NCBI GenBank assembly: GCA_022072415.1 | Contig: JAJVHW010000063.1 | Coordinates: 12,358-76,357, forward strand | Source of the DNA: Planctomycetota bacterium | Lineage (GTDB): Bacteria; Planctomycetota; JAJSAM01; JAJVHW01 | Length of the DNA stretch: 64,000 bases | Direction of reading: 5' to 3' | Notes under the pieces: model-generated | What the model was told of the DNA's origin: nothing | Seen by the model: the letters and a program-made list of their open reading frames with translations, nothing else | Databases searched by the model: none | Translations under genes and position numbers: made by a program | Shown here: positions 13,393 to 56,765 of the stretch, piece after piece | Position numbering within the stretch: position 1 is the first letter of the stretch | Layout: each line of letters starts with the position of its first letter

Positions 13393-13454
13393 GATCCGCG
13401 AATGATCGCCGACGCGGGGGACACGGGGACGCGGCGCCAGCGCCTGCCCCCGCG

Positions 13455-13626
13455 GTGGGGCAGCACCCGGGAGCCGCGACGACGATCACCCTGCCGTTCC
13501 GCGAGGACGCGTCCGCCGCTCTGCGCCGCTCGCCGGAGGCGTTCGCAGCGGAGATGCGACTCGCCACGATCGACCGGTGCCGACAGGGTGTCGTCGCCCG
13601 GGGACGCGCGGCGTTGCTGGACCGGC
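13455..13626 (+). pseudogene. Possible truncated UPF0175-type antitoxin fragment
   Basis: ITLPFREDASAALRRSPEAFAAEMRLATIDRCRQGVVARGRAALL resembles the first half of UPF0175 proteins. High GC3 is lost after about 13626, where many A/T third positions appear. No partner toxin is visible. Confidence 0.25.
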
Positions 13627-13811
13627 TTGCGCACCCCGACGCCTCACGCGGCAGAGCTCAAGGCGCTCGAAGGCGACGATCCGGATCGCGTCCCCGCTGG
13701 GCCCGTGGTGCGTCGCGCATCGACGCCGGGATAGACTGCTCATCCCAATCGCAGCTCGCGGGACACGACCGAGTCGGCCGCCGTGAGACTGCCCGACGTC
13801 ACTGGAGACGG

Positions 13812-14003
13812 ATGGAGCGGGTCTACCTCCCGGGGTTGCACGGACTGCGGTTCTTCGCCGCCCCCGCAGTCGTCGTGCATCACGTCGAACAGTTCAAGAA
13901 GGCGGCGATGCTCCCGCACGGATTCCGGAACCCGTGGATCTTCGGAGTCGGCTCGGCGGCCGTGACGTGGTTGTTCGCGCTGAGCGGATTCCTCATCACC
14001 TAT
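13812..14003 (+). pseudogene. N-terminal fragment (64 aa) of an acyltransferase-3 (OafA-like) membrane protein
   Basis: MERVYLPGLHGLRFFAAPAVVVHH...AAVTWLFALSGFLITY matches the first two TM segments of acyltransferase family 3. Similarity and coding bias end after FLITY, and the remaining ~300 aa are absent. Confidence 0.5.
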
Positions 14004-15063: not shown

Positions 15064-15892
15064 GGGAACCTCCGCTTGATCTGGTCCGACACCGTCTCGA
15101 CGAACACCACGAGCCCCATCAGGAACAGCACCGCAGTGACCATCTCGCCGTAGGCGAGGTTCAGGTGCGACTCCTCGATCTGCTGCCCGAGCCCGCCCGC
15201 GCCGACCATGCCGAGGATCGCCCCCGCGCGGATCGCGCACTCGAAGCGGTAGGCCGAGTAGCCGACCATCTCGCCCGACGCGAGCGGCAGGATCCCGAAC
15301 GCGAAGCACGCGAACCGTCCGGCGCCCACGGTCTCGAGCGCGGTGACGGGCCGGGCGTTCACCGACTCGATCTGCTCGGAGTAGACCTTCGCGAGCATGC
15401 CGCCGTACGCGAGCCCGATCGCGAGCACCGCGGCCGACGGACCGAGCCCGTAGATCCGCACGAAGAGGAGCGCCCACACGAGTTCGGGAACGCTCCGGAG
15501 CACCGCGCCGGTCCCGCGCGCCGCGAAGTACGCCGCGGTGAGCCACGGACGCCGGGGAACGTCGCCGGTGACGAAGAGTGACCCCTGCATCACCGCGCGG
15601 CTCCCGAGGATCCCCAGCGGCAGCCCGATGACGACCGCCACGGCGGTGCCGCACGCCGCGATCGCGAGCGTGTCGAGCGCGAGCGACGCGAAGCGCGAGA
15701 GCAGTTCCGCGCCGCCGGCCGGCGGCCACGCGCGCGCCGCGAAGTCGGCGCCGTTCTCGCGCGCCATCGGCGAGAAGAACGCCCACGGCCTGAACTCGAC
15801 GGAGACGAGCGACGCCGCGCCGAGCAGCGCGAGAAGGCCCCACGACGCGAAGCGGAACGTCCGCCGGTCGCCGACGTGAAGCGCCTCCGCGT

Positions 15893-15896
<4 letters not shown>
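15060..15896 (-). CDS. phnE: Phosphonate ABC transporter permease (second copy)
   Basis: LRSVPELVWALLFVRIYGLGPSAAVLAIGLAYGGMLAKVY, ALETVGAGRFACFAFGILP, GAILGMVGAGGLG. The GTG start overlaps the phnC stop (GTGA at 15893..15896). Confidence 0.85.
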
Positions 15897-16747
<851 letters not shown>

Positions 16748-43600: not shown

Positions 43601-44653
43601 GAAGCGCTCGAGCGCGCCGCGCGCGGGCTCGGGAAGGACCACGAGGAGACGCTCCTGACTTCGCTCGACCTCGGAGTGAACCTGCTCATGACCGAGCGGA
43701 AGGAGGAGTTCCTCGCGCTCATGTCGGAGTGGCTGCCCCGCGCGTGGAGGGTCCTCGGGCACGGGAACGAGATGGTCGTGCAGGTGACCGACGCCTTCGG
43801 CGCCGCGAGCGCGGAGGCCGATCGGCACGCCGATGCCGCGGCCGCCATGGAGTTCCTCGCCGCGGCGACCGCCGCCCAGCTCGGACCCGACGCACCCGAC
43901 GCGCTCCGCCTCGGCGGGAACGCGGCTACGAGCTGGTGGAAGGCCGGGCGGCTCGACAAGTCGCTCCCCATGTTCGAGAGCCTGGTGCCGCGGTTCCGCA
44001 GGGAGCTGGGCGAGTCGTCGCCCGAGTTCCTGATGGCGCTCGCGAATCTCGGCGTGAACCTCCGCGACGCGAAGCGGGCCGAGGAGTCGCTCGCGGCGTT
44101 CGAAGAGGCGACGCGGCTGGCGAAGGCCGCAGGCCCGGAGGCGGCGAGCGTGGTGTCGTTCGCGACGGGCGAGTACGCGCGGACGCTCGTCCGGCTCGGC
44201 CGGAAGGACGAGGCGGTCGCGCTCATGCAGGACGTCGTCGCGGGCGTGCGGAAGCGCGCGCCTGCGGGCGGATTGGCCCTGTCGAACGAGTTCGGCGCCG
44301 TGGCGCCCGTCCTGATCGACGCCGAGATGTGGGAGGTCGCGGAGCCCGTCCTCCGCGAGATGGTCGCGATCCGCGAGAAGCTGGCGCCCGGGCTCTGGAA
44401 CCACTGGAACGCGCGGGCGCTGCTCGGCGAGGCGCTGATGGGGCAGAAGCGGTGGGCCGAGGCGGAGCCCTTCGTCGTCTCCGGTTACGAGGGGCTCGCC
44501 GCGCGCGAGAACGCGATCCCCGGCGCCGCCGCGCACTGGCTCCCCGCGGCGCGGGAGCGCGTCCTCCGGTTCTACGCCGCGTGGGACGCAGCCGAGCCCG
44601 GGAAGGGGCACGACGTGAAGCTCGCGGAGTGGAAGGCGAAGCTCGGGAAGTGA
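40679..44653 (+). CDS. Ser/Thr protein kinase with a TM segment and a very long TPR region
   Basis: Kinase motifs GEGGFGTVWKA, VALKIIK, HRDLKPSNVLV, DFGIAK, GTLQYMSPEQ. A TM segment (PVAAAAAVAAALVAGIVGFAW) is followed by ~850 aa of TPR-like repeats. GGGAGG lies 6 nt upstream of the ATG. Confidence 0.9.
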   Translation: MSKDPARQIAESARTFTDPAERAAYLDRVCRGIARLRADVERHLAEMDAGGGGAAEPGPEPPADEPVVARPAAPPVTASESDTTDSARDSAAVDVGNEKAGDRIGRFLLVKELGEGGFGTVWKAEQVEPVKRTVALKIIKLGMDTEQVVARFEQERQALALMDHPNVARVIDAGATRTGRPYFVMDLVQGVPIGEFCDAERLTVEARLEVFAQVCAAVQHAHMKGIIHRDLKPSNVLVTKRDGKPHATVIDFGIAKATSSKLTDRSLVTEAYQVIGTLQYMSPEQSQASPDIDTRTDVYSLGIILYELLTGTTPYDTDTFQRAVLSDILRMIGDVDAPPPSAKITESRDALPSLADSRSIDVKRLASSLRGELDWIVLKSIEKDRARRYESAEAFAADIRRYLAGEEVSAAPPSATYRLRKFVRRNKGPVAAAAAVAAALVAGIVGFAWQAGVAKHERDEAVKARKAEEAERKRAQAVADFMDSTFKGLDPSADDATSGSLKERLVARLEQMSGEFSKLDADPLARARIEETFGSTMAGLGAVEKAAAAYEGALAIRRRVLGEEANETEQTALSLAFMLRHAGRFDDAMQLVTGVRDRRLARGPLTDDQWIEIDEALGVIHGSAGRAADATPHVEAVVRRRQAKGGPDTEELLLALHNLGVNYRETGKVEDAVRVLADAHARRIALGGEASANTLLTANSLAVALAAAGRRDESAKLSESVRDRVARRYPPEHPLALHANCNYAASLVALGRVDDAVKLVEEQVARATARHGSEASVTVQVRWALVTVYAEAKRTKDALAILEEIVPQMTRVWGADHETVQRARDGLLRYSVEHGRDERARAILESELARLSADPGSGGADGKSAVRIRAELARNLVYTGKPDEALRKLTEMAPIVESVLGPKDSAYSAVLHDIGWVHFTAERPKEAIEALDRAWKAAVAAAGPDSEAAIRSHHALGSAHWLAQDFPKAVAILSEALERAARGLGKDHEETLLTSLDLGVNLLMTERKEEFLALMSEWLPRAWRVLGHGNEMVVQVTDAFGAASAEADRHADAAAAMEFLAAATAAQLGPDAPDALRLGGNAATSWWKAGRLDKSLPMFESLVPRFRRELGESSPEFLMALANLGVNLRDAKRAEESLAAFEEATRLAKAAGPEAASVVSFATGEYARTLVRLGRKDEAVALMQDVVAGVRKRAPAGGLALSNEFGAVAPVLIDAEMWEVAEPVLREMVAIREKLAPGLWNHWNARALLGEALMGQKRWAEAEPFVVSGYEGLAARENAIPGAAAHWLPAARERVLRFYAAWDAAEPGKGHDVKLAEWKAKLGK

Positions 44654-44714
44654 CGGCGCGGCCGGACTGCTGTTGACTCCGCCGCCGCCGCAGGCGGACC
44701 ATGGGCCCATCGCA

Positions 44715-44738
44715 TCCGCGCGGGGGGGCCCGCGCGGA
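44715..44738 (+). terminator. Perfect 10-bp GC hairpin (tccgcgcggg-gggg-cccgcgcgga). Either a terminator of the kinase gene or a 5'-UTR structure of the next gene.
   Basis: Read directly. It lies 62 nt after the kinase stop and ends 2 nt before the GGAAGGGAG Shine-Dalgarno sequence of the TrpB2 gene. No U-tract follows. Confidence 0.4.
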
Positions 44739-44754
44739 GCGGAAGGGAGCCGAC

Positions 44755-46125
44755 ATGGCCGCGCGGAACAACTTCATGCTCGACGAGAGCCGGGTGCCGA
44801 AGGCCTGGTACAACATCAACGCCGACATGCCCGTCGCGCGCGAGCCGGTGCTCCACCCGGGCACCATGAAGCCGGTGACGCCGGACTTCCTGAGCGTGAT
44901 GTTCCCCATGAGCATCCTGCAGCAGGAGATGTCGGCCGAGCGCTGGGTCGAGATCCCCGAGCCCGTGCGCGAGGCGTACCGCCTCTGGCGCCCGACGCCG
45001 CTGATCCGCGCGGTGCGCCTCGAGAAGGCGCTCGACACGCCGGCGCACATCTACTTCAAGTACGAGGGCGTGTCGCCCGTCGGGTCGCACAAGCCGAACA
45101 CCGCGGTCGCGCAGGTCTTCTTCAACAAGGAGGCCGGGTCGAAGGCGCTCGTCACCGAGACCGGCGCCGGCCAGTGGGGCTCCGCCATGGCGATGGCGTG
45201 CGCCTTCTACGACATGCCGTGCGAGATCTTCATGGTGAAGTGCAGCTTCGACCAGAAGCCGTACCGGCGCATGATCATCGAGAACTACGGAGCGACCGTG
45301 TACTCGAGCCCGACCGTCCGCACGTACGCCGGCCGCGCCGAACGCGAGCGGAATCCGGACTCGGACGGCGTGCTCGGGCTCGCGATCTCCGAGGCGATGG
45401 AGACCGTGGCCACGAGCGGCGGCCTGAAGAAGTACGCGCCGGGCTCGTGCCTCAACTACGTGCTGATGCACCAGACGGTGATCGGCATCGAGGCGCTCGA
45501 GCAGATGGAGATGGCCGGCGAGTACCCGGACATGGTGATCGGCTGCGCCGGAGGCGGGTCGAGCTTCGGCGGGATCGCGTACCCGTTCGTCCACCGCAAC
45601 CTGACGCAGGGGAAGAAGACGCGGATCATCGCGGTCGAGCCCGCGTCGTGCCCGTCGATGACGAAGGGCCGCTACGCCTTCGACTACGCCGACCTCGCGT
45701 GCAGCGGGCCCATCGTGAAGATGCACACGCTCGGGCACTCGTTCATCCCGCCGGGCATCCACGCGGGCGGGATGCGCTACCACGGCATGGCGCCGAGCGT
45801 CAGCGCGCTCGTCCACAACGGGGACATCGAGGCGCGGGCGGTCGGGGAGCTCGAGACGTTCGCCGCGGCGGTGCAGTTCGCGCGGACGCAGGGGATCATC
45901 CCGGCGCCGGAGAGCGCGCACGCGATCCGCGTGGCGATCGACGAGGCGCTCGAGTGCAAGCGGCGCGGGGAGAAGAAGGTGATCGTCTTCAACCTGACGG
46001 GCCACGGGCACTTCGACATGGAAGCGTACGACGACTACCACAACGGGCGGATCCACGAGACGGAGCTGTCGGACACGGACCTCCAGGCCGCGCTGGCGCA
46101 GTTGCCGCTCGTGCCGTCGGAGTAG
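44755..46125 (+). CDS. TrpB2-type tryptophan-synthase-beta-like PLP enzyme
   Basis: IYFKYEGVSPVGSHKPN (PLP lysine), TETGAGQWGSAMA, GCAGGGSSFGG. Length and N-terminus (NFMLDESRVPKAWYN) are typical of TrpB2. The start is at the second ATG, which has an SD. No trpA lies nearby. Confidence 0.9.
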   Translation: MAARNNFMLDESRVPKAWYNINADMPVAREPVLHPGTMKPVTPDFLSVMFPMSILQQEMSAERWVEIPEPVREAYRLWRPTPLIRAVRLEKALDTPAHIYFKYEGVSPVGSHKPNTAVAQVFFNKEAGSKALVTETGAGQWGSAMAMACAFYDMPCEIFMVKCSFDQKPYRRMIIENYGATVYSSPTVRTYAGRAERERNPDSDGVLGLAISEAMETVATSGGLKKYAPGSCLNYVLMHQTVIGIEALEQMEMAGEYPDMVIGCAGGGSSFGGIAYPFVHRNLTQGKKTRIIAVEPASCPSMTKGRYAFDYADLACSGPIVKMHTLGHSFIPPGIHAGGMRYHGMAPSVSALVHNGDIEARAVGELETFAAAVQFARTQGIIPAPESAHAIRVAIDEALECKRRGEKKVIVFNLTGHGHFDMEAYDDYHNGRIHETELSDTDLQAALAQLPLVPSE

Positions 46126-46143
46126 CGGACGGGACGAGAGCAT

Positions 46144-46180
46144 CCGGAGCGGACGGCGCGCTTCACGCCGTCCGCTCCGG
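46144..46180. terminator. Perfect 15-bp inverted repeat with a 7-nt loop between convergent genes, likely a bidirectional terminator
   Basis: ccggagcggacggcg (46144..46158), loop cgcttca, then cgccgtccgctccgg (46166..46180). It sits between stops at 46125 (+) and 46190 (-). No U-tract on either side. Confidence 0.6.
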
Positions 46181-46189
46181 CGGAGGAGA

Positions 46190-46654
46190 CTACTTCTTCT
46201 TCTTCGCCGGCTTCTTCGCCGCGGGCTTCTTCGTCGGCGTGTACTTCGGCGGCGTGATGTTGTTCCAGATGTCGCGGTAGACCTTCCACTCGCCGGTCGG
46301 CTGGCGGCGGTAGACGAGGATCCCCTTGCAGTTCCAGTGGATCGTCTTGCCCTTGCCGCTGCGCGGGATGTCCGTCGCGATGTCGTGCCCCTCGTCGAAG
46401 CCCCACTCGCCGCAGACGTGGTTCGCCTTGATGATCTTCGTCCAGTGGGTCTTGTACTCGGCGAAGTAGCCCGCGACGGCGGCGCGGAGCTGCTTCCAGC
46501 CCACGGTCTGCGGCGCGTCCGGCGGCATCTGCGCGGCCTCCGGGTCGTACATCGCCATCACGAGGTCGGTGTCGTTCGAGTTGATCGCCGCCTCGTACGC
46601 CTTGTGGGCGGCTTCGAGGCCGGGATCGAGGACCGGCTTCATCTTCTTCGCCAT
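46190..46654 (-). CDS. NTF2-like (SnoaL/DUF4440-type) protein with a Lys-rich C-terminal tail
   Basis: AINSNDTDLVMAMYDPEAAQMPPD ... GKTIHWNCKGILVYRRQPTGEWKVYRDIWN follows the NTF2-like pattern. The tail is PPKYTPTKKPAAKKPAKKKK. GGAGGG lies 7 nt upstream of the ATG. Confidence 0.65.
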   Translation of the reverse strand: MAKKMKPVLDPGLEAAHKAYEAAINSNDTDLVMAMYDPEAAQMPPDAPQTVGWKQLRAAVAGYFAEYKTHWTKIIKANHVCGEWGFDEGHDIATDIPRSGKGKTIHWNCKGILVYRRQPTGEWKVYRDIWNNITPPKYTPTKKPAAKKPAKKKK

Positions 46655-46724
46655 GAGAGAGACCCTCCGTTCTTGGGAAGGGAGGATGCTACGTGGGCCG
46701 CGAGCGGCGGCGGATGCCCAAAGT

Positions 46725-49700
46725 TCAGAGAGACGCGAGAAGCGACCGCGCCTCGGTCACGTCCTTCGTCCCCGCGCCCTCGGTGAACCACGCGCACACC
46801 GGCTCGAGCACCTCGCGGGCGCCCGCCGCGTCGCCGCGGTCCCGGAGCAGCTCCGCGAGCGTCGTGGCGGCGCGGAGCTCCCAGGACTTCGTCCCGTGCC
46901 GCCGCGCGGTGTCCACGGCCGCGCGGAGCTGCGCCTCGCCCTCGGCCGTCCGCCCCTGCCGCGAGAGCACCCAGCCCTTCAGCCGCAGGATCTCCGGGAG
47001 CCAGATCCGTTCCTGGTACGCCGGGCGCTCGATCTGCTCGAGGCACTCCTCGATGAGCCCCGCCGCGCCCGCGAGGTCGCCCTGCATGGCCGTCGCCTGC
47101 GCGAGCGCCGACTTCAGGAAGGGGACGCGCACGCGTCCGCCGACGCCCGTCCACGCGTCGATCGTGCGGCGCAGGTCCGCCGCCGCTTCGCGGACGCGCC
47201 CGGAGTGGAGCTTCTCGAACGCCGCGAGCTGCGGGATCGACACCTGGTACATGAAGGCGATGCCCTGGTCGCGCGCCATGCGGTCGAGGTCCTCGACGCG
47301 CTTGCGCAGCGGCTCCGCCTCGCGGCGGTACGCCCATGCGTAGGACCCGAACGTGAGCGACCAGACGAGGTTGAACGCGTGGCCGACCTTCCGCGCGTGC
47401 GCCTCCGCGCCGCGGCTGACCTCGAGCGCCGTGTCGGGGCGGCCCTCCATCCAGATCCACTGGTGCGAGTACACCTCGACGAAGTTCCGGAGGTCGTGGC
47501 CCGTGAGCCGGATCCACCGCTCGGCGCGCGACGCGTCGTAGAGCGAGAGCACGCGGTCGGCGTGCGCGCGCGCCTTCGGGAGGTCGGCGAGGAAGAAGTT
47601 CGACACCATCGCGGCCGCGGGGCCGAACAGGCGGAGGTCCGGATCGTCGGCCGCGGCGCACGCGGCGAGGAGCTCGTCCGCGTAGGGCTGCGAGTCGGCG
47701 ATGCGGCCCTGCGTGATCGTGTTGGTCCACATCCACCAGAGCCCGAGGATGTGCTGCTGCGCGTTGCCGCGTCCGCGGGCGAGCCGCAGGATCGCCTCGG
47801 TGTTGACGCCGATCTCCTGCGCCGCCCAACCGCGGAGCCCCGCGTGCGCCGCGTTGAGCTGCTCGCGGATCGAGAGCTCGAGCGCGTCGCGGTCGCCCGA
47901 GGGGGGCACCTGGCCGATCAGGCGGAGCGCCGCCGAGAGGTGGGCCACCGCTTCCTGCAGCGCGACGCGCGCGATCGCGAGGGTTCCCGCCTGCCGCCAG
48001 AGCGGGATCGCCGAGTCCACGTTCCCGGCCTGCGTGTGGTGGTGCGCGACGCGTTCGGGGCGCCCGGTGACCTGCGCCGCGAACGTCGTCTCGAGCGCGT
48101 GGGCGAGCTGCGCGTGGAGCTGCTGGCGGCGGCTCTTCAGGAGGAGGTCGTAGGCCGCGTCCTGCACCAGCGCGTGCTTGAAGGTGTAGACGGCGTCCGG
48201 CGCCTCGCCGCGGCGGGTGATGAGACCGGACTCGAGGAGCCGCGCGAGCCCCGCGTCGAGGTCGCCGCCGCGGAAGGACGACACCGCGGCGAGGAGGTCG
48301 TGCGGGAACTCGCGGCCGATGCACGCGCCGAGCTGCGCGATCTCCTTCACCGCGCCGAGGCGGTCGAGGCGGGCGGCGAGCGAGTCCTTGAGCGACGTGG
48401 GCACGGCCAGCGTCGGGAGCGGCGCGTCGAGCGTCCACCGCCCGTCCTTCAGCGAGAGGAGGCCCGACTCGAGCACGGACTTCGTGAGCTCCTCGACGAA
48501 GAGCGGCACGCCGTCGGTGTGCGACACGATGTGCGCGAGCACCTCGGGCGGCAGTTCGCGCCCGCCGGTCACGCCGGCCACGATCGCGGCGACGCTTCCC
48601 CTCTCGAGGCGCGAGAGCCCGATCGTGCTCACGTGCGACTGTCCGCTCCACGGGACCGCGTACTCGGGGCGGTGCGTCGCGAGCACCATCACCGGAAGGT
48701 CCCGGATGCGCGGCACGAGCGCGTCGAGGAGCTCCTGGCTCGTCGGGTCGAGCCAGTGGAGGTCCTCGAAGACGACGAGGACGGGTTCCGTGCGCGCGCG
48801 GCCGACGACCTGCGCGGCGAGCGCCTCGAGCGTGCGCTCCTTCCGCTTCTGCGGCGGGAGCTGGATCGGCGGATACCCGTCCGTCGGGAGCGAGAGGAGC
48901 GCGGCGAGGAACGGCGCCGCCGCGGCGACCTGGGCCGGAGTCCCGACGAGCGACGCCTCGAGCTTCGCGAGCCGCTGCGCGGGGGTGTCGTCGCGCGCGA
49001 AACCGGCCGCCGTCTCGCACTGCTCGACGAACGGGTAGAGCGCCGAGTGCAGGTGGTAGGGCGAGCACTGGTAGCGGAGCTCCGCGTGCGGCTCGACGAT
49101 ACGCTCGCGGAGCCCGTGGGACAGGCGCGACTTCCCGATCCCGGCCTCGCCGCCGACGCAGACGACCTGGCCCTCGCCGTCCTTCGCGCGGCGCCAGCGG
49201 TCGTGGAGGAGCGTGATCTCCTCCTCGCGGCCGATCATGCCTGCAAGGTCGCCTCCGGCCTGCGCCGCGTCGAACCGTCCGCCGGTGCGGCGGACTCCGT
49301 CCACGCGGAAGACGGACACCGGATCCGCGAACCCCTTCAGGCGGTGCTCGCCGAGGTCGGACAGCGCGAACGCGTTGCGGACGAGGCGCCGCGTGGAGGG
49401 GCCGATCACGACCTCGTCGGTCCCGGCGAGCGCCTGGAGCCGTGCGGCGAGGTTCGGCGCCTCGCCGACCGCGAGACGCGCCTCCGTGGTCCCGCCTTCG
49501 GACGCGTCGCCCACGACGACGGCGCCGGTGGCGAGCCCGATCCGCACCGCGAGCGGCCGTGCCGCGCGGATCGTCTTCACCGCCTGCACCATCTCGAGCG
49601 CCGCGCGCACGCCGCGCTCGGCGTTGTCCTCGTGCGCCGCCGGCCAGCCGAAGTAGACCATCAGCCCGTCGCCGAGGTACTGCGCGACGTGCCCGTCGTA

Positions 49701-50096
49701 GCGCGTCACCACGTCGCCGCAGGCCTTGCGGTACTTCTGGATCAGGTCGCGGAGCTCCTCGGGGTCGAGTTCCGCCGCGAGCGCGGTGGAACCGACGAGG
49801 TCGCAGAACATCACGGTGAGCTGGCGGCGCTCGCCGACGGGCTGCACCGCGGCGGTGTCCGGCGCGGACGGCGCGGCGGGGGCCGCCGACTTCGGAGCGC
49901 GGAGCGCCTCGATCGCGACCGCGAGGCGGCGGCGGGGGCCGATCGGAAGCCCGAGGCGGTCGAGGTCCGCGTCGGTCAGGTGCGGGAGGTCCTCGAGCGT
50001 GATCTCGTTGTCCGCGAACACGGCGGCGTGCTTCTCGAGCCCCGCCTTCTGCAGCCACGCGGCCAGTCTGCCGTCGCCGTCGCCACCGTCGCTCAC
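46725..50096 (-). CDS. SAM (sterile alpha motif) domain / class III adenylate-guanylate cyclase / AAA-STAND ATPase / TPR multidomain protein
   Basis: SAM-like N-terminus: LAAWLQKAGLEKHAAVFADNEITLEDLPHLTDADLDRLGLPIGPRRRL. Cyclase: RRQLTVMFCDLVGST, GDGLMVYFG, RIGLATGAVVVGD, GEAPNLAARLQ. P-loop GEAGIGKS. Long TPR-like C-terminus. The GTG start overlaps the upstream stop (GTGA at 50093..50096). Confidence 0.9.
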   Translation of the reverse strand: MSDGGDGDGRLAAWLQKAGLEKHAAVFADNEITLEDLPHLTDADLDRLGLPIGPRRRLAVAIEALRAPKSAAPAAPSAPDTAAVQPVGERRQLTVMFCDLVGSTALAAELDPEELRDLIQKYRKACGDVVTRYDGHVAQYLGDGLMVYFGWPAAHEDNAERGVRAALEMVQAVKTIRAARPLAVRIGLATGAVVVGDASEGGTTEARLAVGEAPNLAARLQALAGTDEVVIGPSTRRLVRNAFALSDLGEHRLKGFADPVSVFRVDGVRRTGGRFDAAQAGGDLAGMIGREEEITLLHDRWRRAKDGEGQVVCVGGEAGIGKSRLSHGLRERIVEPHAELRYQCSPYHLHSALYPFVEQCETAAGFARDDTPAQRLAKLEASLVGTPAQVAAAAPFLAALLSLPTDGYPPIQLPPQKRKERTLEALAAQVVGRARTEPVLVVFEDLHWLDPTSQELLDALVPRIRDLPVMVLATHRPEYAVPWSGQSHVSTIGLSRLERGSVAAIVAGVTGGRELPPEVLAHIVSHTDGVPLFVEELTKSVLESGLLSLKDGRWTLDAPLPTLAVPTSLKDSLAARLDRLGAVKEIAQLGACIGREFPHDLLAAVSSFRGGDLDAGLARLLESGLITRRGEAPDAVYTFKHALVQDAAYDLLLKSRRQQLHAQLAHALETTFAAQVTGRPERVAHHHTQAGNVDSAIPLWRQAGTLAIARVALQEAVAHLSAALRLIGQVPPSGDRDALELSIREQLNAAHAGLRGWAAQEIGVNTEAILRLARGRGNAQQHILGLWWMWTNTITQGRIADSQPYADELLAACAAADDPDLRLFGPAAAMVSNFFLADLPKARAHADRVLSLYDASRAERWIRLTGHDLRNFVEVYSHQWIWMEGRPDTALEVSRGAEAHARKVGHAFNLVWSLTFGSYAWAYRREAEPLRKRVEDLDRMARDQGIAFMYQVSIPQLAAFEKLHSGRVREAAADLRRTIDAWTGVGGRVRVPFLKSALAQATAMQGDLAGAAGLIEECLEQIERPAYQERIWLPEILRLKGWVLSRQGRTAEGEAQLRAAVDTARRHGTKSWELRAATTLAELLRDRGDAAGAREVLEPVCAWFTEGAGTKDVTEARSLLASL

Positions 50097-51535
50097 GGGC
50101 CGAGCCTAGCCGAGGCGGCGGTCGCGGCGCTTCGATTCGCGCCGGCCACGAGGAGTCCGCGTCCGGCGAGCCACTCGACGAGCGCGAACGCCGCGCGCGA
50201 AGGCATCCGCGACGCCCACTGCTGCGCGAGGGCGAGGGGCGCGGCGTCGCCCCGGACGGAGCGGAGGAGCGGCGCGAGCTCGTGGCCCGCGAGGAACGCG
50301 ACCGGCTCGTCGAGCGCGGGATGCGAGACGGCGGCGCGCGAGGAGACGAAGTCGGCGTCGAGGCAGGGGATCTCGGGGAACGAGCACTCGGAGGAGACGG
50401 CGAGTTCGGCGTGCGACGACCAGTCGACCGGAACGCGATGCGGCTCTTCGAGCGGAGCCGTCGCGGCGCGCGCCGTCCAGAACGGACCCGTCCGGCCCGC
50501 CGCGGCATAGTGCGATCCGGCCCACGCCGCGTGACGGTCGTACGCCGAGAGCAGCGCGCTCCGATGGAACGACTCCGCGAGACCGGAGCGCTCCGGGCGG
50601 CGAAGGAGCGTGTTCACGACGACCGCGCCGGACACCGCGGACTGGATCGCCCGCTGCACGCCGCTCGAGGCGAGCGGGTCGAGGGCGAGCGCGGCGTCGC
50701 CCACGCGGATGTGGTGCGTCGAGACCGGATCGCCGGCGAGCCGCGGCGTCGCGTCGGACGCGCGCACCGGACCGTCCTGCACGAGACCTTCGCAGCCTTC
50801 GAAGAGGCGCGAACCGCTCATCAGCGCGCGGAAGCGGTCCTCGGGCGACGTTCCGCGCGGCGCGGCGTCCCTGTCGGCGAAGACGAGCGTGTTGTAGGTG
50901 CCGTCGGGGATCGGCACGCCCCAGCGCCAGCCGTGCTCTGCCGCCTCGATGCGCGGCGCGTCGGGAAGCCGCGCTCCGCGCCAGTACGCGAAGAGCGCGA
51001 CGGTGGGGGCGCCCTCGCGGAGCGGCGCGACGGACGTCGGCGACGACCGCCCGCCCGCGAACGCGACGAAGCGCGCGGAGATTTCGGTGCGACCGCCGGC
51101 ATGGTCCGCGGCGACGCGCCATCCGCAGTCGGCTCGCGTCGGGGCCGGGGCCGGGGCCCTCGCCGCCGCCGGCTGGAGCACGCGCACTCCGCACGACCGC
51201 GCATGGTCGAGCAGCAGGGCGTCGAACCGCCCGCGGTCGACGAGGAGGCCGCCGTCGCCCGACGGCGCGTCGCGGCGGACGGGAGACGACGTCCACTCGA
51301 CGTCCACGCGCGGCGCGGCCGGGAACCCGGCGGCCTCGACCGCGGCGCGGGCGCCCGATGCCTCGAGGAGCGGGAGCACTCCGGGCGTGAGCGACTCGCC
51401 GACGTGGCGGCGCGGAAAGCCGTCGCGCTCGACGAGGCACACGTCGTGCCCGAGCTGCGCGAGGCGCGCCGCGAGCGTGGCGCCCGCGGGGCCGCCGCCG
51501 ATCACCACGACGTCTGCGCGGACTTCCTCCGTCAT
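50093..51535 (-). CDS. FAD-dependent oxidoreductase of the LodB / flavin-halogenase-like class with a C-terminal PqqD-like extension
   Basis: Start at MTEEVRAD (ATG ending at 51535). Dinucleotide fold VVVIGGGPAGATLAARLAQLGHDVCLVE. GWRWGVPIP (WxWxIP-like) and GDAALALDPLASSGV. The last ~110 aa (…VAFLAGHELAPLLRSV…ALVEWLAGRGLLV) resemble a PqqD/RRE winged helix. Confidence 0.75.
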   Translation of the reverse strand: MTEEVRADVVVIGGGPAGATLAARLAQLGHDVCLVERDGFPRRHVGESLTPGVLPLLEASGARAAVEAAGFPAAPRVDVEWTSSPVRRDAPSGDGGLLVDRGRFDALLLDHARSCGVRVLQPAAARAPAPAPTRADCGWRVAADHAGGRTEISARFVAFAGGRSSPTSVAPLREGAPTVALFAYWRGARLPDAPRIEAAEHGWRWGVPIPDGTYNTLVFADRDAAPRGTSPEDRFRALMSGSRLFEGCEGLVQDGPVRASDATPRLAGDPVSTHHIRVGDAALALDPLASSGVQRAIQSAVSGAVVVNTLLRRPERSGLAESFHRSALLSAYDRHAAWAGSHYAAAGRTGPFWTARAATAPLEEPHRVPVDWSSHAELAVSSECSFPEIPCLDADFVSSRAAVSHPALDEPVAFLAGHELAPLLRSVRGDAAPLALAQQWASRMPSRAAFALVEWLAGRGLLVAGANRSAATAASARLGP

Positions 51536-51542
51536 CGGCGGC

Positions 51543-52922
51543 TCAGCCCGTCCCGATGCGCTCCGCCGCCGGCGCCGCCTCCTCGAACCGGCGGCGCGGC
51601 AGCCGCAGGTAGACCTCGAGGCAGTGGTGGAGCCAGCCGCGGATGTAGTCGCACGCGGGGCGCCCGCGACGGATCGCCTCGTGGTGGCAGCCGCCGCCGC
51701 ACATGTAGCGCGCCCAGCAGCTCGCGCACGGCTCCTGGCGGTGGACGTGGCGGTCGGTGAGCCACGCGATCTGGCGGCCGCGGTCCACGCCGCCCGCGAC
51801 GCTTCCCATCGCGCCGCCCGAGTCGCCGACGAACCGGTGGCACGCCGACAGCTCTCCGTCGGCCGACACGCCGAGGTACCCCGCCCCCGCGCCGCATGGA
51901 TACGGCCGGTGCGTGCCCTTCTCGATCTCGCGGAGCGCATTGACGAGGTTCGCGAACGGGAAGCGCTCGCCGCGGGCGGTGCGCCGCTCGTACTCGCGGC
52001 CGCATCCGATCATCTCGCCGAGCATCGTCTCGAGGTCGGCCGCCTGCATCTCGCCGTTCCCGCCGGAGGACGCGAGCATCGGCGAGAACCCGACGCTGTA
52101 GAATCCCTCCGCGACGAACTCGCGGAGCGTCTCGCGCAGACCGAGGTTCCGCGGCGTGACGGTGACGCGCGCCGAGACCTGCATCTTCCGCTGCCGCGCG
52201 AGGAGCGGCCGCACGTTCGCGAGGATCCGGTCGTAGCTCCCGCGCCCCCGGCGGTCGGGGCGGAGCAGGTCGTGGACCGCCCGCGGACCGTCGAGGCTGA
52301 CCGTCACGGCGAACCCGTGCTCCTCGAAGAAGTCGCCGTCGTCCGCGGTGAGCAGCGTGCCGTTCGTGGTGATCGAGAACGAGACGTTCACGCCGCGCCG
52401 CTCTCCCAGCTCCTTCGCGTGGAGCGTCGCCGCGCGGAGCACGTCGCGCGCGACGAGCGGCTCGCCGCCGAGGAACGCGAGCGTGGTCCGCGCGCCGGGC
52501 TCCGCGCGGCCGACGAGCATCTCGACCGAGCGGAGCGCCGTCTCGACCGGCATGCTCTTCGCCGGGCCGCCGAAGTCGCCCTGCTGCGCGTAGCAGTAGC
52601 CGCAGCCGAGGTTGCACTTCTGCGCGACGGCGAGCGAGAGCGCGTGGACCGGCGGCGGGTCGAGCGGCGTGTCGTCGATCCGCGGCGGGCCCGCGAGCCC
52701 GGCGGCGGCGAGCACGGCGCCGATCTCCTCGCCCGTCGTCGCGGCGCGGAGCCGCGCGACGAGCGCCGGGTCCGCGTCGAAGAGCTGCGAGCCGTCGGCC
52801 GCGAGGAGGCTCCACCCGGACGCCGCGCGGAGAAGGTGGAAGCGCGGGTCCCGCGGGGCCGACGCCTCCATGCACCTGCGCGCCTCGGCGCGGAGGTCCT
52901 CCTCCTGCGCGGCCGCCGTCAC
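51543..52922 (-). CDS. Radical SAM / SPASM-domain enzyme
   Basis: CNLGCGYCY (Cys codons at 52614..52616, 52602..52604 and 52593..52595), GGEPL, SITTNGTLL. The C-terminal Cys-rich SPASM region is YPCGAG...CHRF...CASCWARYMCGGGCHHE. I take the GTG at 52922, which overlaps the upstream stop (GTGA) and has GAGG upstream. An alternative ATG lies at 52871. Confidence 0.85.
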   Translation of the reverse strand: MTAAAQEEDLRAEARRCMEASAPRDPRFHLLRAASGWSLLAADGSQLFDADPALVARLRAATTGEEIGAVLAAAGLAGPPRIDDTPLDPPPVHALSLAVAQKCNLGCGYCYAQQGDFGGPAKSMPVETALRSVEMLVGRAEPGARTTLAFLGGEPLVARDVLRAATLHAKELGERRGVNVSFSITTNGTLLTADDGDFFEEHGFAVTVSLDGPRAVHDLLRPDRRGRGSYDRILANVRPLLARQRKMQVSARVTVTPRNLGLRETLREFVAEGFYSVGFSPMLASSGGNGEMQAADLETMLGEMIGCGREYERRTARGERFPFANLVNALREIEKGTHRPYPCGAGAGYLGVSADGELSACHRFVGDSGGAMGSVAGGVDRGRQIAWLTDRHVHRQEPCASCWARYMCGGGCHHEAIRRGRPACDYIRGWLHHCLEVYLRLPRRRFEEAAPAAERIGTG

Positions 52923-55222
52923 TTCGCCTCGCCGGGCGCGTCGCGTCCGCGGAGCTGCACGCGGAGCCACTTCTCCCAGTCGTGGAAGAGCCGGTCGTAG
53001 TCCACGAGCCGCGCGTCCATGTAGTCGTCCGGCACGTACTTGCCCGACCGCTCGATCTGCATCCAGTTGTCGCCGGTGCTGCGGCCTTCGCGCGTGACCT
53101 CGACGTTCACGAAGTCGGGCCGCGCCGACGCCCAGTAGTAGCAGGAGCACTCGCGGTAGTCGTTCTGCCACGGCGAGCAGAGCCCCTGCGTGAGCTCTCC
53201 CGGCTGCGCGAGCGCGCGCGAGATCACGACCGTGCCCGGCTCGAAGAACGGTCGCACGGTCAGCTCGACGCTGATGCTCGTCTTCTCGTTCCAGGGAGTC
53301 GGGACGTACCACTCCTCGGCGGCGCTGAAGTCGCAGACGACCTTCTTGCCGACGCTCTTCCAGAGCAGGTGCGCGAGCGCGTTCGACCACTCGAGTGGCG
53401 CGAGCCCGTGCGGGTTCCCCTCGTAGGGGACGGTCGCGGAGTCGTCCGGATCGAGCGTGTTCGGGCCGCGCATCACCGCGGTCGTGGGGATCCCCCCGAT
53501 CCGCTGCAGGCGGTGGCGGTGGAGACGCTTCAGCGCCGGGCGGTCGGACTCGACGTCCACCACCAGGCTGTCGTACTCGCGGAGCACGAGCCCCTCGAGC
53601 ATCCGGCGCCAGACCGCGCGGAAGTCCACTTCGAGCCCCGGGCAGCAGTTGGAGATCGACGTCTCGATCCGGGAGCTGACGGGGTTCCCCGCGGCGGCGT
53701 AGTGGAGCTGCGCGCTGCGGTTCCGCGGCGTGAGCGCGGGGGCGGCGGGCGCCTTCGGCTCCGCGGACGAGGTCGGATCGATCGGCCCCTCGAAGGGCTG
53801 CGCCCGCGCGGCCTTGCCGATCGTGTCGATCATGCGGTAGGTGAGCGCGAGATAGTTGTTGTCGCCGCCGATCATGAGCGCCGGCATCTTGCGGCGCCCG
53901 GCGTCGGTGTAGTCGGCCGCCTCCTCGGGCCGCCGGAGCAGCCGTGCGAACCACGGCGCGGCGCCGCTCCGGAGCGCCGTGTAGACCTGCTGGTGGAGCG
54001 CGAGCACCGCCGCCGTGTCGGCCGTCTCCGGCGACATGATGGGCCGGCCGGGCCGCTGCGTGTCGGCCGCCTCCTCGTAGGGCATCGTGTCGAACAGCAG
54101 CGCGGGGCGGCCGTCCACGTCGTTCCCGTTCATGACCTCGACGTTGAGGAAGCGCACGGTCTCGAACGCGCGGCGGACGATGTCCTCGGCGCGCGCGCGC
54201 GTGACCTCGGGCGGTTCGTCGGCGGGCACCTCGGGGCCGAAGAGGACCTGGTCGAGGTCGTCGGCGAGCGTCCGCACGAAGAGCGAATCGGGGATCACCA
54301 TGGGCGGACCCGACGTGACGCGCGCCGCCGCGGAGAGCCCCTTTCCGCGCAGCCGCACCTCGACGATCCCGTCGCACGTGTCGTCGAGGAACCCGCGGCT
54401 CTTCGCCGCGTTGCCGTAGAGCCACGGCGGCGCCGGCGGGACGATCGCGAAGAGCGACGGGGGAAGCGTGTCGTTCCAGTACTCGCGCGGCTTGCCGGGG
54501 AACTCGTCGCTGTCGATGGCCGGCGGGACCTCGAAGCCGGGCCAATTGCCCTTGCCGTAGACGCGGAGTTCCGGCGGCGGGACGTACTGCCCCGGATCGT
54601 CGAACTCGACGGGCTTCTTCGGACCGTAGATGAGCCCCGTCGCGGGCGTGAAGCGGAGGCGCAGCCCGGGGAAGCGCTCGTTCGGGCGGATGAACCGCAC
54701 GCTGCCGAAGCCGACCTTGCCGTCCTTCACGAAGTGCGGGCAATGCCCGTCGAGCGCGACCGGATCGTGGTGGCGGAACCAGCCCGTCTTCGCGGTGACG
54801 GTGTCCTCCTCGTCTCCCGTGCGGCGCGCGACCTTGCGGTTGGCGACGTGGACGCTCCACTCGACGTCCGCGAGAGACAGCCCGTTCTCGTCGAGCAGAT
54901 CCTCCGTGAGCGGGACCAGATCGCCGTCCGGCTGCGAACCCGCCGCCGGATCGAGGACCGCGAACACCTCGAGGAACGGCGCCACGCGGCGGAACTTCCC
55001 GTCGTCCTTGAACGCGATCTCCGCGGGCACGAACGACTCGCGGATCTCGCCGGTCGCGTCGTCCACGACGAGCGTCTCCGCGGGGACGATCCGGCGGAAC
55101 CCGGTCGGGTCCGCGGGGTCGTCCTCGAGCGTGTAGTTGTCCATCATCCGGGGCGACGAGCCCTGCCGCCCGATCGCCAGAGGCGGGAGGATGCGGAGTT
55201 CGCGGATCCTGCGGGCCTTCAT
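52919..55222 (-). CDS. LodA-like protein (homologue of cysteine-tryptophylquinone L-lysine epsilon-oxidase / glycine oxidase GoxA family)
   Basis: Start MKARRIRELRILPPLAIGRQGSS (compare LodA HPSIGVARLGN). VEWSVHVANRKVA (compare IEWTVHLANKKAA). FLDDTCDGIVEV (compare WYDDISDGSVTC). ISNCCPGLEVDF (compare IGNCVGLPMCPGIEMTW). LCSPWQNDYRECSCYYWASARPD (compare ACPWQADFFNC...YWWPPQSP). The comparison uses the Marinomonas LodA sequence as I remember it. ATGA overlap with the upstream gene. Confidence 0.75.
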   Translation of the reverse strand: MKARRIRELRILPPLAIGRQGSSPRMMDNYTLEDDPADPTGFRRIVPAETLVVDDATGEIRESFVPAEIAFKDDGKFRRVAPFLEVFAVLDPAAGSQPDGDLVPLTEDLLDENGLSLADVEWSVHVANRKVARRTGDEEDTVTAKTGWFRHHDPVALDGHCPHFVKDGKVGFGSVRFIRPNERFPGLRLRFTPATGLIYGPKKPVEFDDPGQYVPPPELRVYGKGNWPGFEVPPAIDSDEFPGKPREYWNDTLPPSLFAIVPPAPPWLYGNAAKSRGFLDDTCDGIVEVRLRGKGLSAAARVTSGPPMVIPDSLFVRTLADDLDQVLFGPEVPADEPPEVTRARAEDIVRRAFETVRFLNVEVMNGNDVDGRPALLFDTMPYEEAADTQRPGRPIMSPETADTAAVLALHQQVYTALRSGAAPWFARLLRRPEEAADYTDAGRRKMPALMIGGDNNYLALTYRMIDTIGKAARAQPFEGPIDPTSSAEPKAPAAPALTPRNRSAQLHYAAAGNPVSSRIETSISNCCPGLEVDFRAVWRRMLEGLVLREYDSLVVDVESDRPALKRLHRHRLQRIGGIPTTAVMRGPNTLDPDDSATVPYEGNPHGLAPLEWSNALAHLLWKSVGKKVVCDFSAAEEWYVPTPWNEKTSISVELTVRPFFEPGTVVISRALAQPGELTQGLCSPWQNDYRECSCYYWASARPDFVNVEVTREGRSTGDNWMQIERSGKYVPDDYMDARLVDYDRLFHDWEKWLRVQLRGRDAPGEAK

Positions 55223-56673
55223 CGGCGCACCCCCTCGCGGCCGGCTCCGAGGCCGGCGAGCACACGGTCGATCCACTCGATCCCCTGCGAGTCCACGGCC
55301 TGCATCACGGTCAGCGCGCGCGCCGAGTCCGGGGCGCGGTCGGCGCGGAGGAGGTCGGCGCAGAGGGACGTCGATTCGCGGAGCAGCTCGCGGTGGAACA
55401 CCCAGCAGTCGGCGTCCGACTCGGGCAGCACGAGCGTGTACGGCATCTCGAACGGCGGCCCCGCGCGCCGCGGATCCGCGCGGTCCGCCGTGAGCGGCGA
55501 ACGCACGAGGATCCCCGCGCACGTCTTCATGTTGTACATCTCGCCGAAGATGCGGTGGAGCACCATGCCGCGCAGCCGCCGCGACGCGGCGCCCGAGTCG
55601 CCGCCGGAGAGGCGGAACCAGAACGTCATCCACATGAGCGCCATGCGGTAGCGCAGGTTGAAGAGCTGCGCCCACGAGCGCGAGGTCTCGGACTCGATCC
55701 ACGAGTGGCGAGGCGACCGGCGCAGGTCCGGGTTCGCGGTGGGGTTCGCGGCCACGTCGCGCGCGTACGCCCACGGCTTCCGCGCCGCGTCGCGCGCCTC
55801 GATGCCGCGCCAGATCTCGGCGAAGCGGTCGAAGTGCGAGGGCTCGTCGCCGGAGTCGACGTTCGCCGCGGCGAGATGGGGCGCCTCGCCCTGCGCGGCG
55901 ATCTGGCGGAGCCCCGCGAGCGCGTCGGTGCGGGTCGCCATCTGCGCCACCACCACGGTCGCCTTGCGATCCTCCATGGCCACCGCGTCGCGGCCGTACG
56001 GCCGGCGGAGCTTCGGATCGAGGGAGGGATTCGCCAGCGTCGCCGCGGTCTCGGGCATGTACCCCTTGCCCCACTCGGCGAACGAGGCCTGCGCGCCGTA
56101 CGTTCCCGCGCGGAACGTCTCGTCGGGGATCCGCGACTCGTCGCCCACCAGTTCGATCAGCTTCTCGTAGAGCGTGCCGACGTGGTGGACGCGGCCCGCC
56201 GACTCCGGGACCTTCAGGCGCCGCACCACCGCGTTCGCCACCCGCACGTCCTCGGCCGAGGCGTCGGACGGCATCTCCGGGGGCATCTCCGCGTAGACGT
56301 AGCGCGTGATGGTCTCCATGTCGAGCGCGCGGAGCTGGAACGGGAACGGGAAGTAGTCCGTGTCGAACGGGATGTTGCGCCGGTTGAAGCAGACGGGTCC
56401 GCCGACGAGCGTGAGGAGATTCTGCACGCTGACGAGGTGCCCCATCTCCTCGCGGGCGATCGTGAGCAGCATGTCCTGCCACCGCCGGACCTCGTGCCGC
56501 TTCGCGGCCGGGACCTGGTCGCCGCCCAGCGAGTACGCCGCGAAGAGGTACTGGACGAGCTGCGCGTGCTCGATCTCGGCGCCGATGCCGAGGAGCATGC
56601 AGAGATAGTCGCGCCACGACATGCCCGGCGCCCTGTCCGGATGGGACGAGGGCTTGACTGCGGATCGTTTCAC
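55219..56673 (-). CDS. Ferritin-like domain protein (Pfam Ferritin-like family, the VioB/RebD-type domain)
   Basis: GAEIEHAQLVQYLFAAYSL ... LTIAREEMGHLVSVQNLLTLVGGP ... FPFPFQLRAL ... RYVYAEMP matches the two-helix E..H / EE..H signature of this family. GTG start at 56673, alternative ATG at 56622. Confidence 0.7.
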   Translation of the reverse strand: MKRSAVKPSSHPDRAPGMSWRDYLCMLLGIGAEIEHAQLVQYLFAAYSLGGDQVPAAKRHEVRRWQDMLLTIAREEMGHLVSVQNLLTLVGGPVCFNRRNIPFDTDYFPFPFQLRALDMETITRYVYAEMPPEMPSDASAEDVRVANAVVRRLKVPESAGRVHHVGTLYEKLIELVGDESRIPDETFRAGTYGAQASFAEWGKGYMPETAATLANPSLDPKLRRPYGRDAVAMEDRKATVVVAQMATRTDALAGLRQIAAQGEAPHLAAANVDSGDEPSHFDRFAEIWRGIEARDAARKPWAYARDVAANPTANPDLRRSPRHSWIESETSRSWAQLFNLRYRMALMWMTFWFRLSGGDSGAASRRLRGMVLHRIFGEMYNMKTCAGILVRSPLTADRADPRRAGPPFEMPYTLVLPESDADCWVFHRELLRESTSLCADLLRADRAPDSARALTVMQAVDSQGIEWIDRVLAGLGAGREGVRR

Positions 56674-56765
56674 GTGATGGCCCTCCCGGCCGCATCGAGG
56701 CAGAACCGCGAGTCTACGCAGGTCGCAGCGCCCGTTTCAAAGGGCGTTCCCAGTATCATCCGCGC

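Follow-up and report, generated by a model that had tools for sequence, protein, structure and literature searches.

How would a protein of the LodA/GoxA type be matured when its gene is followed by that of a radical S-adenosylmethionine (SAM) enzyme? The question is raised by a stretch of 64,000 nucleotides from the genome of a Planctomycetota bacterium (assembly GCA_022072415.1, contig JAJVHW010000063.1, positions 12,358 to 76,357 of the forward strand), hereafter the window, in which a radical-SAM/SPASM gene stands between the gene of a large LodA-like protein and that of a flavoprotein. Formation of the protein-derived cofactor cysteine tryptophylquinone (CTQ) is described in a 2025 review for two systems only, quinohemoprotein amine dehydrogenase (QHNDH) and the oxidases LodA and GoxA. 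In the QHNDH route, the radical-SAM enzyme QhpD and the flavoprotein QhpG act on a small peptide subunit; in the LodA/GoxA route, a flavoprotein alone acts on a large oxidase. A preliminary description of the window had suggested a hybrid of the two. The present analysis points to a conserved operon of a previously undescribed quinoprotein, in which the LodA-like protein would undergo QHNDH-like maturation by the radical-SAM enzyme and the flavoprotein, a reading to which we assign a probability of roughly 0.6. By sequence comparison, the component families are known and it is their widespread combination that is new: a LodA-type scaffold, QHNDH-type maturases and a QHNDH-type residue pattern.

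A conserved five-gene operon

The G+C content of the window is about 73%, and open reading frames (ORFs) were resolved by a frame plot of third-codon-position G+C (GC3) combined with inspection of start codons. Five consecutive minus-strand genes, named A to E, lie between 46.7 and 56.6 kb. Gene A (55219..56622, 467 amino acids (aa)) encodes a ferritin-like protein of family PF12902. Gene B (52919..55222, 767 aa) encodes the protein with the LodA/GoxA fold, which belongs to a large unannotated family and is the proposed quinoprotein as well as the proposed substrate of the products of C and D. Gene C (51543..52871 or 51543..52922, 442 or 459 aa) encodes the QhpD-like radical-SAM/SPASM enzyme, and gene D (50093..51535, 480 aa) a flavin adenine dinucleotide (FAD) monooxygenase of the QhpG type (peptidyl-tryptophan dihydroxylase family). 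In the product of gene E (46725..50096, 1123 aa), Pfam and NCBIfam models recognize a sterile alpha motif (also abbreviated SAM), a class III nucleotide cyclase, an AAA_16 (STAND) domain and TPR repeats. The placement of the radical-SAM/SPASM gene between the 767-aa gene and the flavoprotein gene, as first read from the DNA, was borne out by the GC3 plot, the start codons, the match to Pfam Radical_SAM and the cysteine motifs.

The stop codon of A overlaps the start of B as ATGA, the GTG start of E overlaps the stop of D as GTGA, and C and D are separated by 7 nt. Two starts come into question for C. GTG at 52922, the start in one public gene call, would give a GTGA overlap with B, and ATG at 52871, which agrees with the N-termini of C homologues (M[E/S]ASAPR), would leave a gap of 47 nt. 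The ATG (442 aa) is the probable start, and with it the gaps of 47 and 7 nt given in the preliminary description are both correct. In a scan of positions 44500-57200, a single sigma-70-like promoter match was found upstream of A (56711..56740, minus strand), a consensus match that counts as weak evidence, and no terminator-like site was found within the cassette, which is equally weak evidence.

A genome scan with the sequence of B alone returned no relatives. The family alignment found them in 268 species-representative genomes, from which 80 loci were kept, 69 of them with enough flanking DNA to judge the neighbourhood. Gene A is present in all of the latter (69/69), C in 68/69, D in 66/69 and E in 62/69. 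A, B, C and D, in most cases together with E, make up a conserved operon, in which the order is usually A-B-C-D-E and, in the Acidobacteriaceae, D-A-B-C. The best-conserved gene of the cassette is C, with 54-72% identity. The hosts are spread across seven phyla, including Acidobacteriota, Verrucomicrobiota, Alpha- and Gammaproteobacteria, Gemmatimonadota, Myxococcota and Planctomycetota. The association of a radical-SAM gene with a LodA-like gene is consequently not a peculiarity of the source genome, a concern that had been voiced at the outset.

Gene B, a distant relative with the LodA/GoxA fold

The product of gene B has the same sequence as a 'hypothetical protein' from a Planctomycetes metagenome-assembled genome (MAG), and its more than 1,100 homologues are, every one, 'hypothetical' or unnamed. 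No model for B was found in NCBIfam release 20. Its scores against the models of the LodA family stay below the cutoffs, with 14.4 bits vs 600 for NF038172, 20.6 vs 25 for LodA_C and 19 vs 26.3 for LodA_N (PF17990, PF18417); such sub-cutoff matches recur in the family, for LodA_N in 18/25 members and for LodA_C in 20/25. A profile of the B family retrieves GoxA and LodA from the PDB weakly (E 0.04), via four collinear motifs, and hhalign relates the N-terminal half of B to a bona fide LodA/GoxA-family oxidase of Mycetohabitans with a probability of 90.8% (E 1.2e-6).

The predicted structure points in the same direction. An AlphaFold2 (AF2) model built from a 120-sequence alignment reached a predicted local distance difference test score (pLDDT) of 86.9 and a predicted TM-score (pTM) of 0.92; it replaced a model from 25 sequences with a pLDDT of 54.6, the Foldseek matches of which were meaningless. 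In the Foldseek search of the PDB with the newer model, the best 45 matches are all LodA or GoxA (probability 1.00, E 2e-9 to 3.5e-7), the next having an E of 0.37, and the TM-scores against LodA/GoxA are low (0.23-0.33). Residues D688, C692 and W697 of B align with D678, C682 and W697 of PlGoxA ('PSWWAANLP'), and D688 and C692 also with D512 and C516 of LodA. The active-site Asp of LodA/GoxA, the CTQ Cys four residues further on and the Trp in a (Y/W)WA context are all present and invariant in the B family. Judged by its modelled fold, B is a distant relative of LodA and GoxA and, by the cutoffs of the hidden Markov models (HMMs), not a member of the LodA family. The original assignment of this neighbour as a LodA-type CTQ protein is retained as far as fold and profile link are concerned, and has to be narrowed to a remote relationship by the Pfam and NCBIfam scores.

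A residue pattern shared with QhpC

The sequence of QhpC, used for comparison, was read from a real qhp operon of Paracoccus kondratievae, and the residues considered in mature numbering are C7, E16, C27, D33, C37, C41, W43 and D49. In QhpC, CTQ is formed from C37 and W43, and thioethers join C7-E16, C27-D33 and C41-D49 (PMC8172795, PMC7876137). The invariant motif of B, GELTQGLCSPWQNDYRECSCYYWASARPD (aa 675-703; 53114..53200, minus strand), has the spacing C682-x5-D688-x3-C692-x1-C694-x2-W697-x5-D703, compared with C27-x5-D33-x3-C37-x3-C41-x1-W43-x5-D49 in QhpC. The motif matches the modified residues of the QhpC core (C27, D33, C37, C41, W43, D49) in order, with one single-residue indel, and from its translation it is predicted to hold the Asp, Cys and Trp of a CTQ site together with Cys/Asp pairs for thioethers. 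Equivalents of C682, C694 and D703 are absent from GoxA, LodA and the Mycetohabitans LodA-type protein, with which the common part consists of the Asp, Cys and Trp only. Written as the regular expression C-x5-D-x3-C-x(1-3)-C-x(1-2)-W-x5-D, the pattern occurs among 3.3 million six-frame residues in B homologues and QhpC only; in the whole window, B alone has a QhpC-like pattern.

The motif is part of a 'cofactor module' at the C-terminus of B (about aa 497-767; 52922..53734, minus strand), which elsewhere occurs as an ORF by itself or joined to a ferritin-like domain. A search of 1.84 billion representatives gave 462 clusters of this module at 50% identity, in several architectures. Among the best 150 of these 462 clusters, the six motif residues are kept in 131/131 non-truncated sequences, which comprise 91 sequence variants. 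Exactly four cysteines (C526, C682, C692, C694) are universally invariant in the module in all architectures, and QhpC also has four. The remaining one, C526, is located in a second element, NC(x)PGLExD (aa 525-533; 53624..53650, minus strand), which is invariant in all three architectures and aligns to F582-H583-P-G-V-E587 of GoxA. The AF2 confidence of B is low only at 527-529 and 693-703, apart from one further loop. On conservation, C526 is a possible third cross-link site.

The two putative maturation enzymes

The product of gene C matches Pfam Radical_SAM (E 3.5e-16) and carries the CX3CX2C motif (C103/107/110) and seven SPASM cysteines (C343/361/399/402/408/412/424). These are common to QhpD and ScfB, and the Cys sets for three [4Fe-4S] clusters align with those of QhpD. 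The best NCBIfam model for C is that of QhpD (TIGR03906, quino_hemo_SAM), with 303.7 bits at the top of 64 matches. Lower scores were obtained for PapB (NF047865, 242.1 bits, under the cutoff of 340), the SCIFF maturase (TIGR03974, 215 bits, under the cutoff of 425) and a Nif11 radical-SAM model (213 bits), and the anaerobic sulfatase maturase (anSME, TIGR03942) scored 90.4 bits, far under its cutoff of 349. In a tblastn search of plasmid records, the enzymes of the same family come first (56-63% identity), followed by an intermediate clade (40-45%), annotated QhpD/PeaB (34-38%) and ScfB (28-29%), and CcpM, HxsB, GrrM and anSME rank last, all below 100 bits. Identity to QhpD amounts to 31-33% and to anSME to 21.6%. 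The closest solved structure by sequence search of the PDB is CteB (5wgg), and weak matches to anSME are also found there (4k36/4k37, E 5e-12).

A neighbour-joining (NJ) tree of 25 sequences, in which anSME is the outgroup, was bootstrapped under Poisson and gamma distances. The clade of C-type enzymes is recovered with 94-100% bootstrap and that of QhpD with 100%, and the two are sisters in every point estimate. By scores and tree, C is a QhpD-like radical-SAM/SPASM enzyme; a phylogenetic placement had been proposed as the check that could assign it to the sulfatase maturases, and it groups beside QhpD instead.

The flavoprotein D passes the cutoff of the QhpG model NF049967 (305.9 vs 240 bits), and its residues 9-456 cover the whole profile (1-423 of 423); the corresponding values are 96.9 bits for LodB and 88.8 bits for GoxB, each with a cutoff of 400. 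In the PDB, its top match is 7ctq (QhpG, E 7.9e-36), and halogenases are among the related flavoproteins found. By these matches, D is of the QhpG type and not of the LodB type. From this family membership and from its adjacency to C and B, we infer that D may act as a dihydroxylase of the CTQ-precursor Trp. Since C best matches the QhpD model and D passes the QhpG cutoff, both maturases are assigned to the QHNDH type. The statement that the operon pairs a LodA-type protein with both enzyme classes holds in that a radical-SAM enzyme and a flavoprotein are both encoded, and needs correction in that the flavoprotein is not the LodB-type enzyme of that family.

Domain shuffling and the substrate question

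Split versions of B are encoded by Rhizobium leguminosarum pRL9b4 and Mycetohabitans endofungorum, with the motif module of 264 or 301 aa as an ORF of its own directly upstream of the radical-SAM gene. A different arrangement is seen in Streptomyces sp. NBC_00073 and Nostoc sp. UHCC 0926, where the module precedes the ferritin-like domain in one fused protein and a second protein holds the LodA_N-like part. The radical-SAM enzymes of these two fall in the intermediate clade, and their flavoproteins are shorter and below the QhpG cutoff (61 and 131 bits). In every architecture, the radical-SAM enzyme scores best against the QhpD model and the flavoprotein against the QhpG model. Because of these gene fusions, a single complex is predicted to contain A, the module and the N-terminal part of B.

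A plasmid of Mycetohabitans endofungorum (NZ_CP132742.1) encodes a classical LodA/GoxA oxidase together with a LodB-like flavoprotein and without a radical-SAM enzyme (locus L085, 5132-11873). The same plasmid bears, about 5 kb from this pair, a cassette of split B, radical-SAM and QhpG-like genes (locus L086, 2005-5066). That the LodA/LodB pair lacks both the radical-SAM gene and the equivalents of C682, C694 and D703 is consistent with a tie between the radical-SAM enzyme and the extra Cys/Asp residues. The plasmid provides a natural side-by-side comparison of both systems in a cultured fungal endosymbiont.

Further peculiarities were seen at two of the variant loci. On pRL9b4 of Rhizobium leguminosarum (locus L082; 3317-6046 on the minus strand, 12334-13815 on the plus strand and 14857-16230 on the minus strand), a protein of 910 aa begins with a repeat-rich region and ends in the ferritin-like domain, the flavoprotein gene is followed by that of a tyrosinase, and an S8 subtilisin-type peptidase is encoded 3 kb away. 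QhpE belongs to this peptidase class. On the plasmid of Streptomyces sp. NBC_00073 (locus L083, 5148-6416), two extra hypothetical genes precede the LodA_N-like gene, one of which resembles a DyP-type peroxidase by eye (motif GFHDGVSNL) and is a candidate only.

No conserved small-peptide ORF was found in the 80 loci. In a first pass, the small ORFs were dominated by N-terminal extensions of A and B; in the filtered pass that was used, no small ORF family occurs in more than 13/80 loci, and the families that were detected lie antisense to flanking genes. Within the cassette, the intergenic gaps of 47 nt (or an overlap) and 7 nt leave no room for a peptide gene. The preliminary description had remarked on these short gaps and on the lack of a small precursor-peptide ORF, and the latter extends to the related loci. 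Because no ORF family exceeds this count and those found are antisense, the idea of a precursor peptide was rejected as the leading explanation.

Proposed maturation of B and alternative explanations

In the proposed mechanism, the QhpD-like enzyme C would bind B, or the free C-terminal module in the split versions, and would form intramolecular thioethers between Cys sulfur and Asp methylene groups by radical-SAM chemistry, with C682-D688 and C694-D703 as the likely pairs. A third thioether link may be supplied by C526. The QhpG-like enzyme D would dihydroxylate the unmodified W697, and C692 would bond to the oxidized indole to give CTQ, with D688 as the conserved active-site Asp. Mature B, complexed with the ferritin-like protein A, would then oxidize an amine or amino-acid substrate. 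B would act as the catalytic scaffold, combining the LodA/GoxA fold with an active-site loop in which the modified residues are arranged as in QhpC. The hybrid interpretation put forward in the preliminary description is supported by every computational test that was run, the chemistry itself being predicted.

A more far-reaching proposal is offered tentatively, with somewhat less than even odds. B may represent a third structural class of CTQ enzyme, in which a LodA/GoxA fold has its cofactor loop caged, like that of the QHNDH gamma subunit, by Cys-Asp thioethers of radical-SAM origin and forms an obligate complex with a di-iron-type ferritin-like subunit. Such an enzyme could be a bridge showing the common origin of the QhpC peptide and the LodA loop, and its maturase a QhpD-type enzyme that matures a full-size enzyme.

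Several observations weigh against QHNDH-like maturation of B. QhpD depends on a leader of 28 residues, carried by a small and unfolded peptide (PMC7876137); no leader is evident on B, and a folded protein of 767 aa is an unusual substrate for a radical-SAM enzyme. Within the motif, C694 is off register with C41 by one or two positions, and the pattern was fixed after the sequences of both B and QhpC had been seen. The QhpC model PF08992 gives no match to B (148.8 bits for the QhpC control), and the hhalign comparison of module and QhpC falls short of significance (probability 2%, E 0.023). The sole alignment that hhalign returned has the same register as the motif comparison, and phmmer of the motif region against the PDB finds LodA only, weakly. 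Because PF08992, hhalign and phmmer gave no supported homology, the claim with regard to QhpC is limited to the shared residue pattern; what is claimed from that pattern is that B would work like QhpC, and homology is not claimed. As for the maturase, C is below the equivalog cutoff of TIGR03906 (303.7 vs 453 bits), its sister link to QhpD has a moderate bootstrap of 50-86%, the value varying with the distances used, and the NJ tree was made without PapB and Nif11-type enzymes. Finally, at one locus of a Gemmatimonadetes MAG (L067, 8648-12361), A and B are found with no radical-SAM, flavoprotein or E gene within 10 kb. It is the only fully flanked locus of that kind, and a gene of about 1000-1100 aa lies downstream instead.

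Four other explanations were considered. C could modify B by a different chemistry, making the Cys692-Trp697 bond itself or other links, for example from C526, in which case C682, C694 and D703 would be structural or metal-binding residues. The radical-SAM/SPASM superfamily makes many kinds of cross-link and C is under the QhpD cutoff; moreover, the formation of the Cys-Trp bond in QHNDH is unresolved (PMC7876137), and C526 with NCxPGLExD is both invariant and poorly modelled by AF2. We nevertheless regard this explanation as unlikely, given that the closest characterized relatives (QhpD, PapB and the SCIFF maturases) all make thioethers from Cys to non-alpha carbons of Asp, Glu and similar residues, and that the Cys/Asp spacings of B mirror the QhpC pairs. 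The odds are lower still that the target of C is not B but, for example, the product of a missed small ORF or a precursor peptide encoded elsewhere, and that B is matured by the flavoprotein alone, like LodA. This would be in keeping with the habits of most SPASM maturases in the branch of C, which act on short peptides, and with the Gemmatimonadetes locus, where A and B have no C or D in their vicinity; short ORFs may also escape blastp clustering. It is opposed by the narrow gaps in the cassette, by small ORF families that are rare and antisense, by the restriction of the QhpC-like pattern in the window to B, and by the fact that C, the best-conserved gene, nearly always adjoins the motif module.

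There is only a slim chance that the cassette serves a small-molecule pathway, possibly one derived from tryptophan, in which the substrates of C and D would be free metabolites and B, as an amino-acid oxidase, would supply a VioB-like enzyme with a ferritin-type domain. The PF12902 domain of A also occurs in VioB (weak TIGR04492 match), TrpB-like and SnoaL-like genes accompany part of the loci, and the flavoproteins related to D include halogenases. Those accompanying genes are found in just 16-22/80 loci, however, while D passes the cutoff of a peptidyl-Trp dihydroxylase family and C has the SPASM architecture of a peptide maturase; the invariant six-residue pattern of B would be left unexplained. 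Virtually no weight is given to C being an anSME-type enzyme that makes formylglycine. An anSME is indeed a SPASM enzyme that acts on full-size proteins, and C matches this group weakly (90 bits in NCBIfam, and PDB entries 4k36/4k37 as above). The assignment was rejected on the scores (90.4 vs 349 bits) and on the outgroup position of anSME in the tree, to which the identity of 21.6% may be added; no sulfatase gene is present in the cassette, and B is without the sulfatase motif C/S-x-P-x-R, its relevant stretches being CSPWQ and CCPGL.

Partner and neighbouring genes

Gene A matches the ferritin-like family PF12902 with an E of 2.4e-27. Its conserved Glu and His residues are E58/E59-x2-H62, E112, E246, H263 and E361; no conserved Cys was found in A, and a PDB sequence search with it returned no match. 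A is the probable partner subunit of B. As a substrate of the radical-SAM enzyme, A was rejected for its lack of conserved Cys.

Gene E, translationally coupled to D, scores 531 bits against a 'TOMM system kinase/cyclase fusion' model, which is below the cutoff, and its product is presumed to be a regulator. Two accessory genes are found beyond E, namely that of a SnoaL-like small protein (46190..46654, minus strand) and that of a TrpB-like enzyme dependent on pyridoxal 5'-phosphate (44701..46125, plus strand; NF009057, 677 bits vs a cutoff of 366). Among the 80 loci, the SnoaL-like gene accompanies E in about 22 and the TrpB-like gene is next to the cassette in 16; homologues of both form, with E, a block that stays beside the cassette and varies in orientation. 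As neighbours, the TrpB-like and SnoaL-like genes hint at a substrate related to indole or tryptophan.

Three large genes complete the surroundings. A divergent ORF of 1089 aa with a signal-peptide-like N-terminus (56766-60035, plus strand) has no Pfam or NCBIfam match and no homologue in the 80 related loci. A Ser/Thr protein kinase of 1324 aa with long TPR arrays (40679-44653, plus strand) and a protein of 830 aa made of eight carboxypeptidase-regulatory-like repeats (61403-63895, minus strand) are not evidently tied to the cassette.

Significance

Full-text literature searches returned no paper on radical SAM in connection with LodA-like proteins, nor one that links ferritin-like proteins to QhpD-type maturation. 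In a 2015 survey of LodA-like genes, only lodB-like flavoproteins are reported and radical SAM is never mentioned (PMC4417212). The cassette is not rare, as the 268 species-level genomes and the 462 clusters indicate, and B, the LodA-like protein, goes by 'hypothetical protein' in every annotated public record that was examined. If B is matured in the QHNDH-like manner, a new family of enzymes with a protein-derived cofactor would be added to those described, and a tractable system would be available for studying how QhpD-type enzymes recognize a protein substrate that has no classical leader peptide. An evolutionary link would join the two CTQ lineages, and the PF12902 ferritin-like protein would be a dedicated quinoprotein partner.

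Comparison with known systems

The ranthipeptide maturases (PapB and the SCIFF enzymes ScfB/CteB), which make Cys thioethers to non-alpha carbons (PMC8172795), supply the second- and third-best HMM matches of C, and CteB its best solved structure. C differs from them in that it stays below their cutoffs and has no gene for a small Cys-rich precursor beside it.

With LodA and GoxA, B has in common the fold, a homologous N-terminal half and a flavoprotein gene in the operon. The shared motifs are IxPPLxIxRxG, FDDxCDG, PG[LVI]E and PGxLTxxxxxPWQxDxxxC...(Y/W)WA, and they hold the CTQ Asp, Cys and Trp. The distance from Cys to Trp is 5 residues in B, 15 in GoxA and 65 in LodA. Unlike these oxidases, B has the additional invariant residues C682, C694 and D703, and its similarity is below all HMM cutoffs; its operon, in turn, includes a radical-SAM gene and a flavoprotein gene of the QhpG type, rather than LodB/GoxB as the only dedicated maturase. 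A PF12902 ferritin-like neighbour has been reported for fungal LodA-like genes (PMC4417212).

QhpD/PeaB (TIGR03906) is the best-scoring model and the closest characterized relative of C. The two enzymes share the CX3CX2C motif, a full seven-Cys SPASM domain and an N-terminal extension, and both are encoded beside a QhpG-type flavoprotein and a polypeptide with C-x5-D-x3-C...C..W-x5-D. In contrast to qhp operons, no qhpA, qhpB, qhpC (PF08992), qhpE or qhpF accompanies C in the window and the related loci. The substrate of QhpD is a leader-bearing peptide of 110 aa bound for the periplasm, whereas that of C is presumed to be the 767-aa LodA-fold protein or a module of 260-300 aa. In QHNDH, the ternary complex within which QhpG (NF049967; 7CTQ) acts also contains QhpD and the substrate in its cross-linked form (PMC7876137). 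D passes the full-profile cutoff of this family outside the context of a qhp operon.

B differs from QhpC (PF08992) in having no 28-residue leader and in carrying its motif within, or joined to, a large protein of the LodA or ferritin type. The two are alike in the order and near-identical spacing of the core modified residues, in their four invariant cysteines and in the position of the gene next to that of the radical-SAM enzyme.

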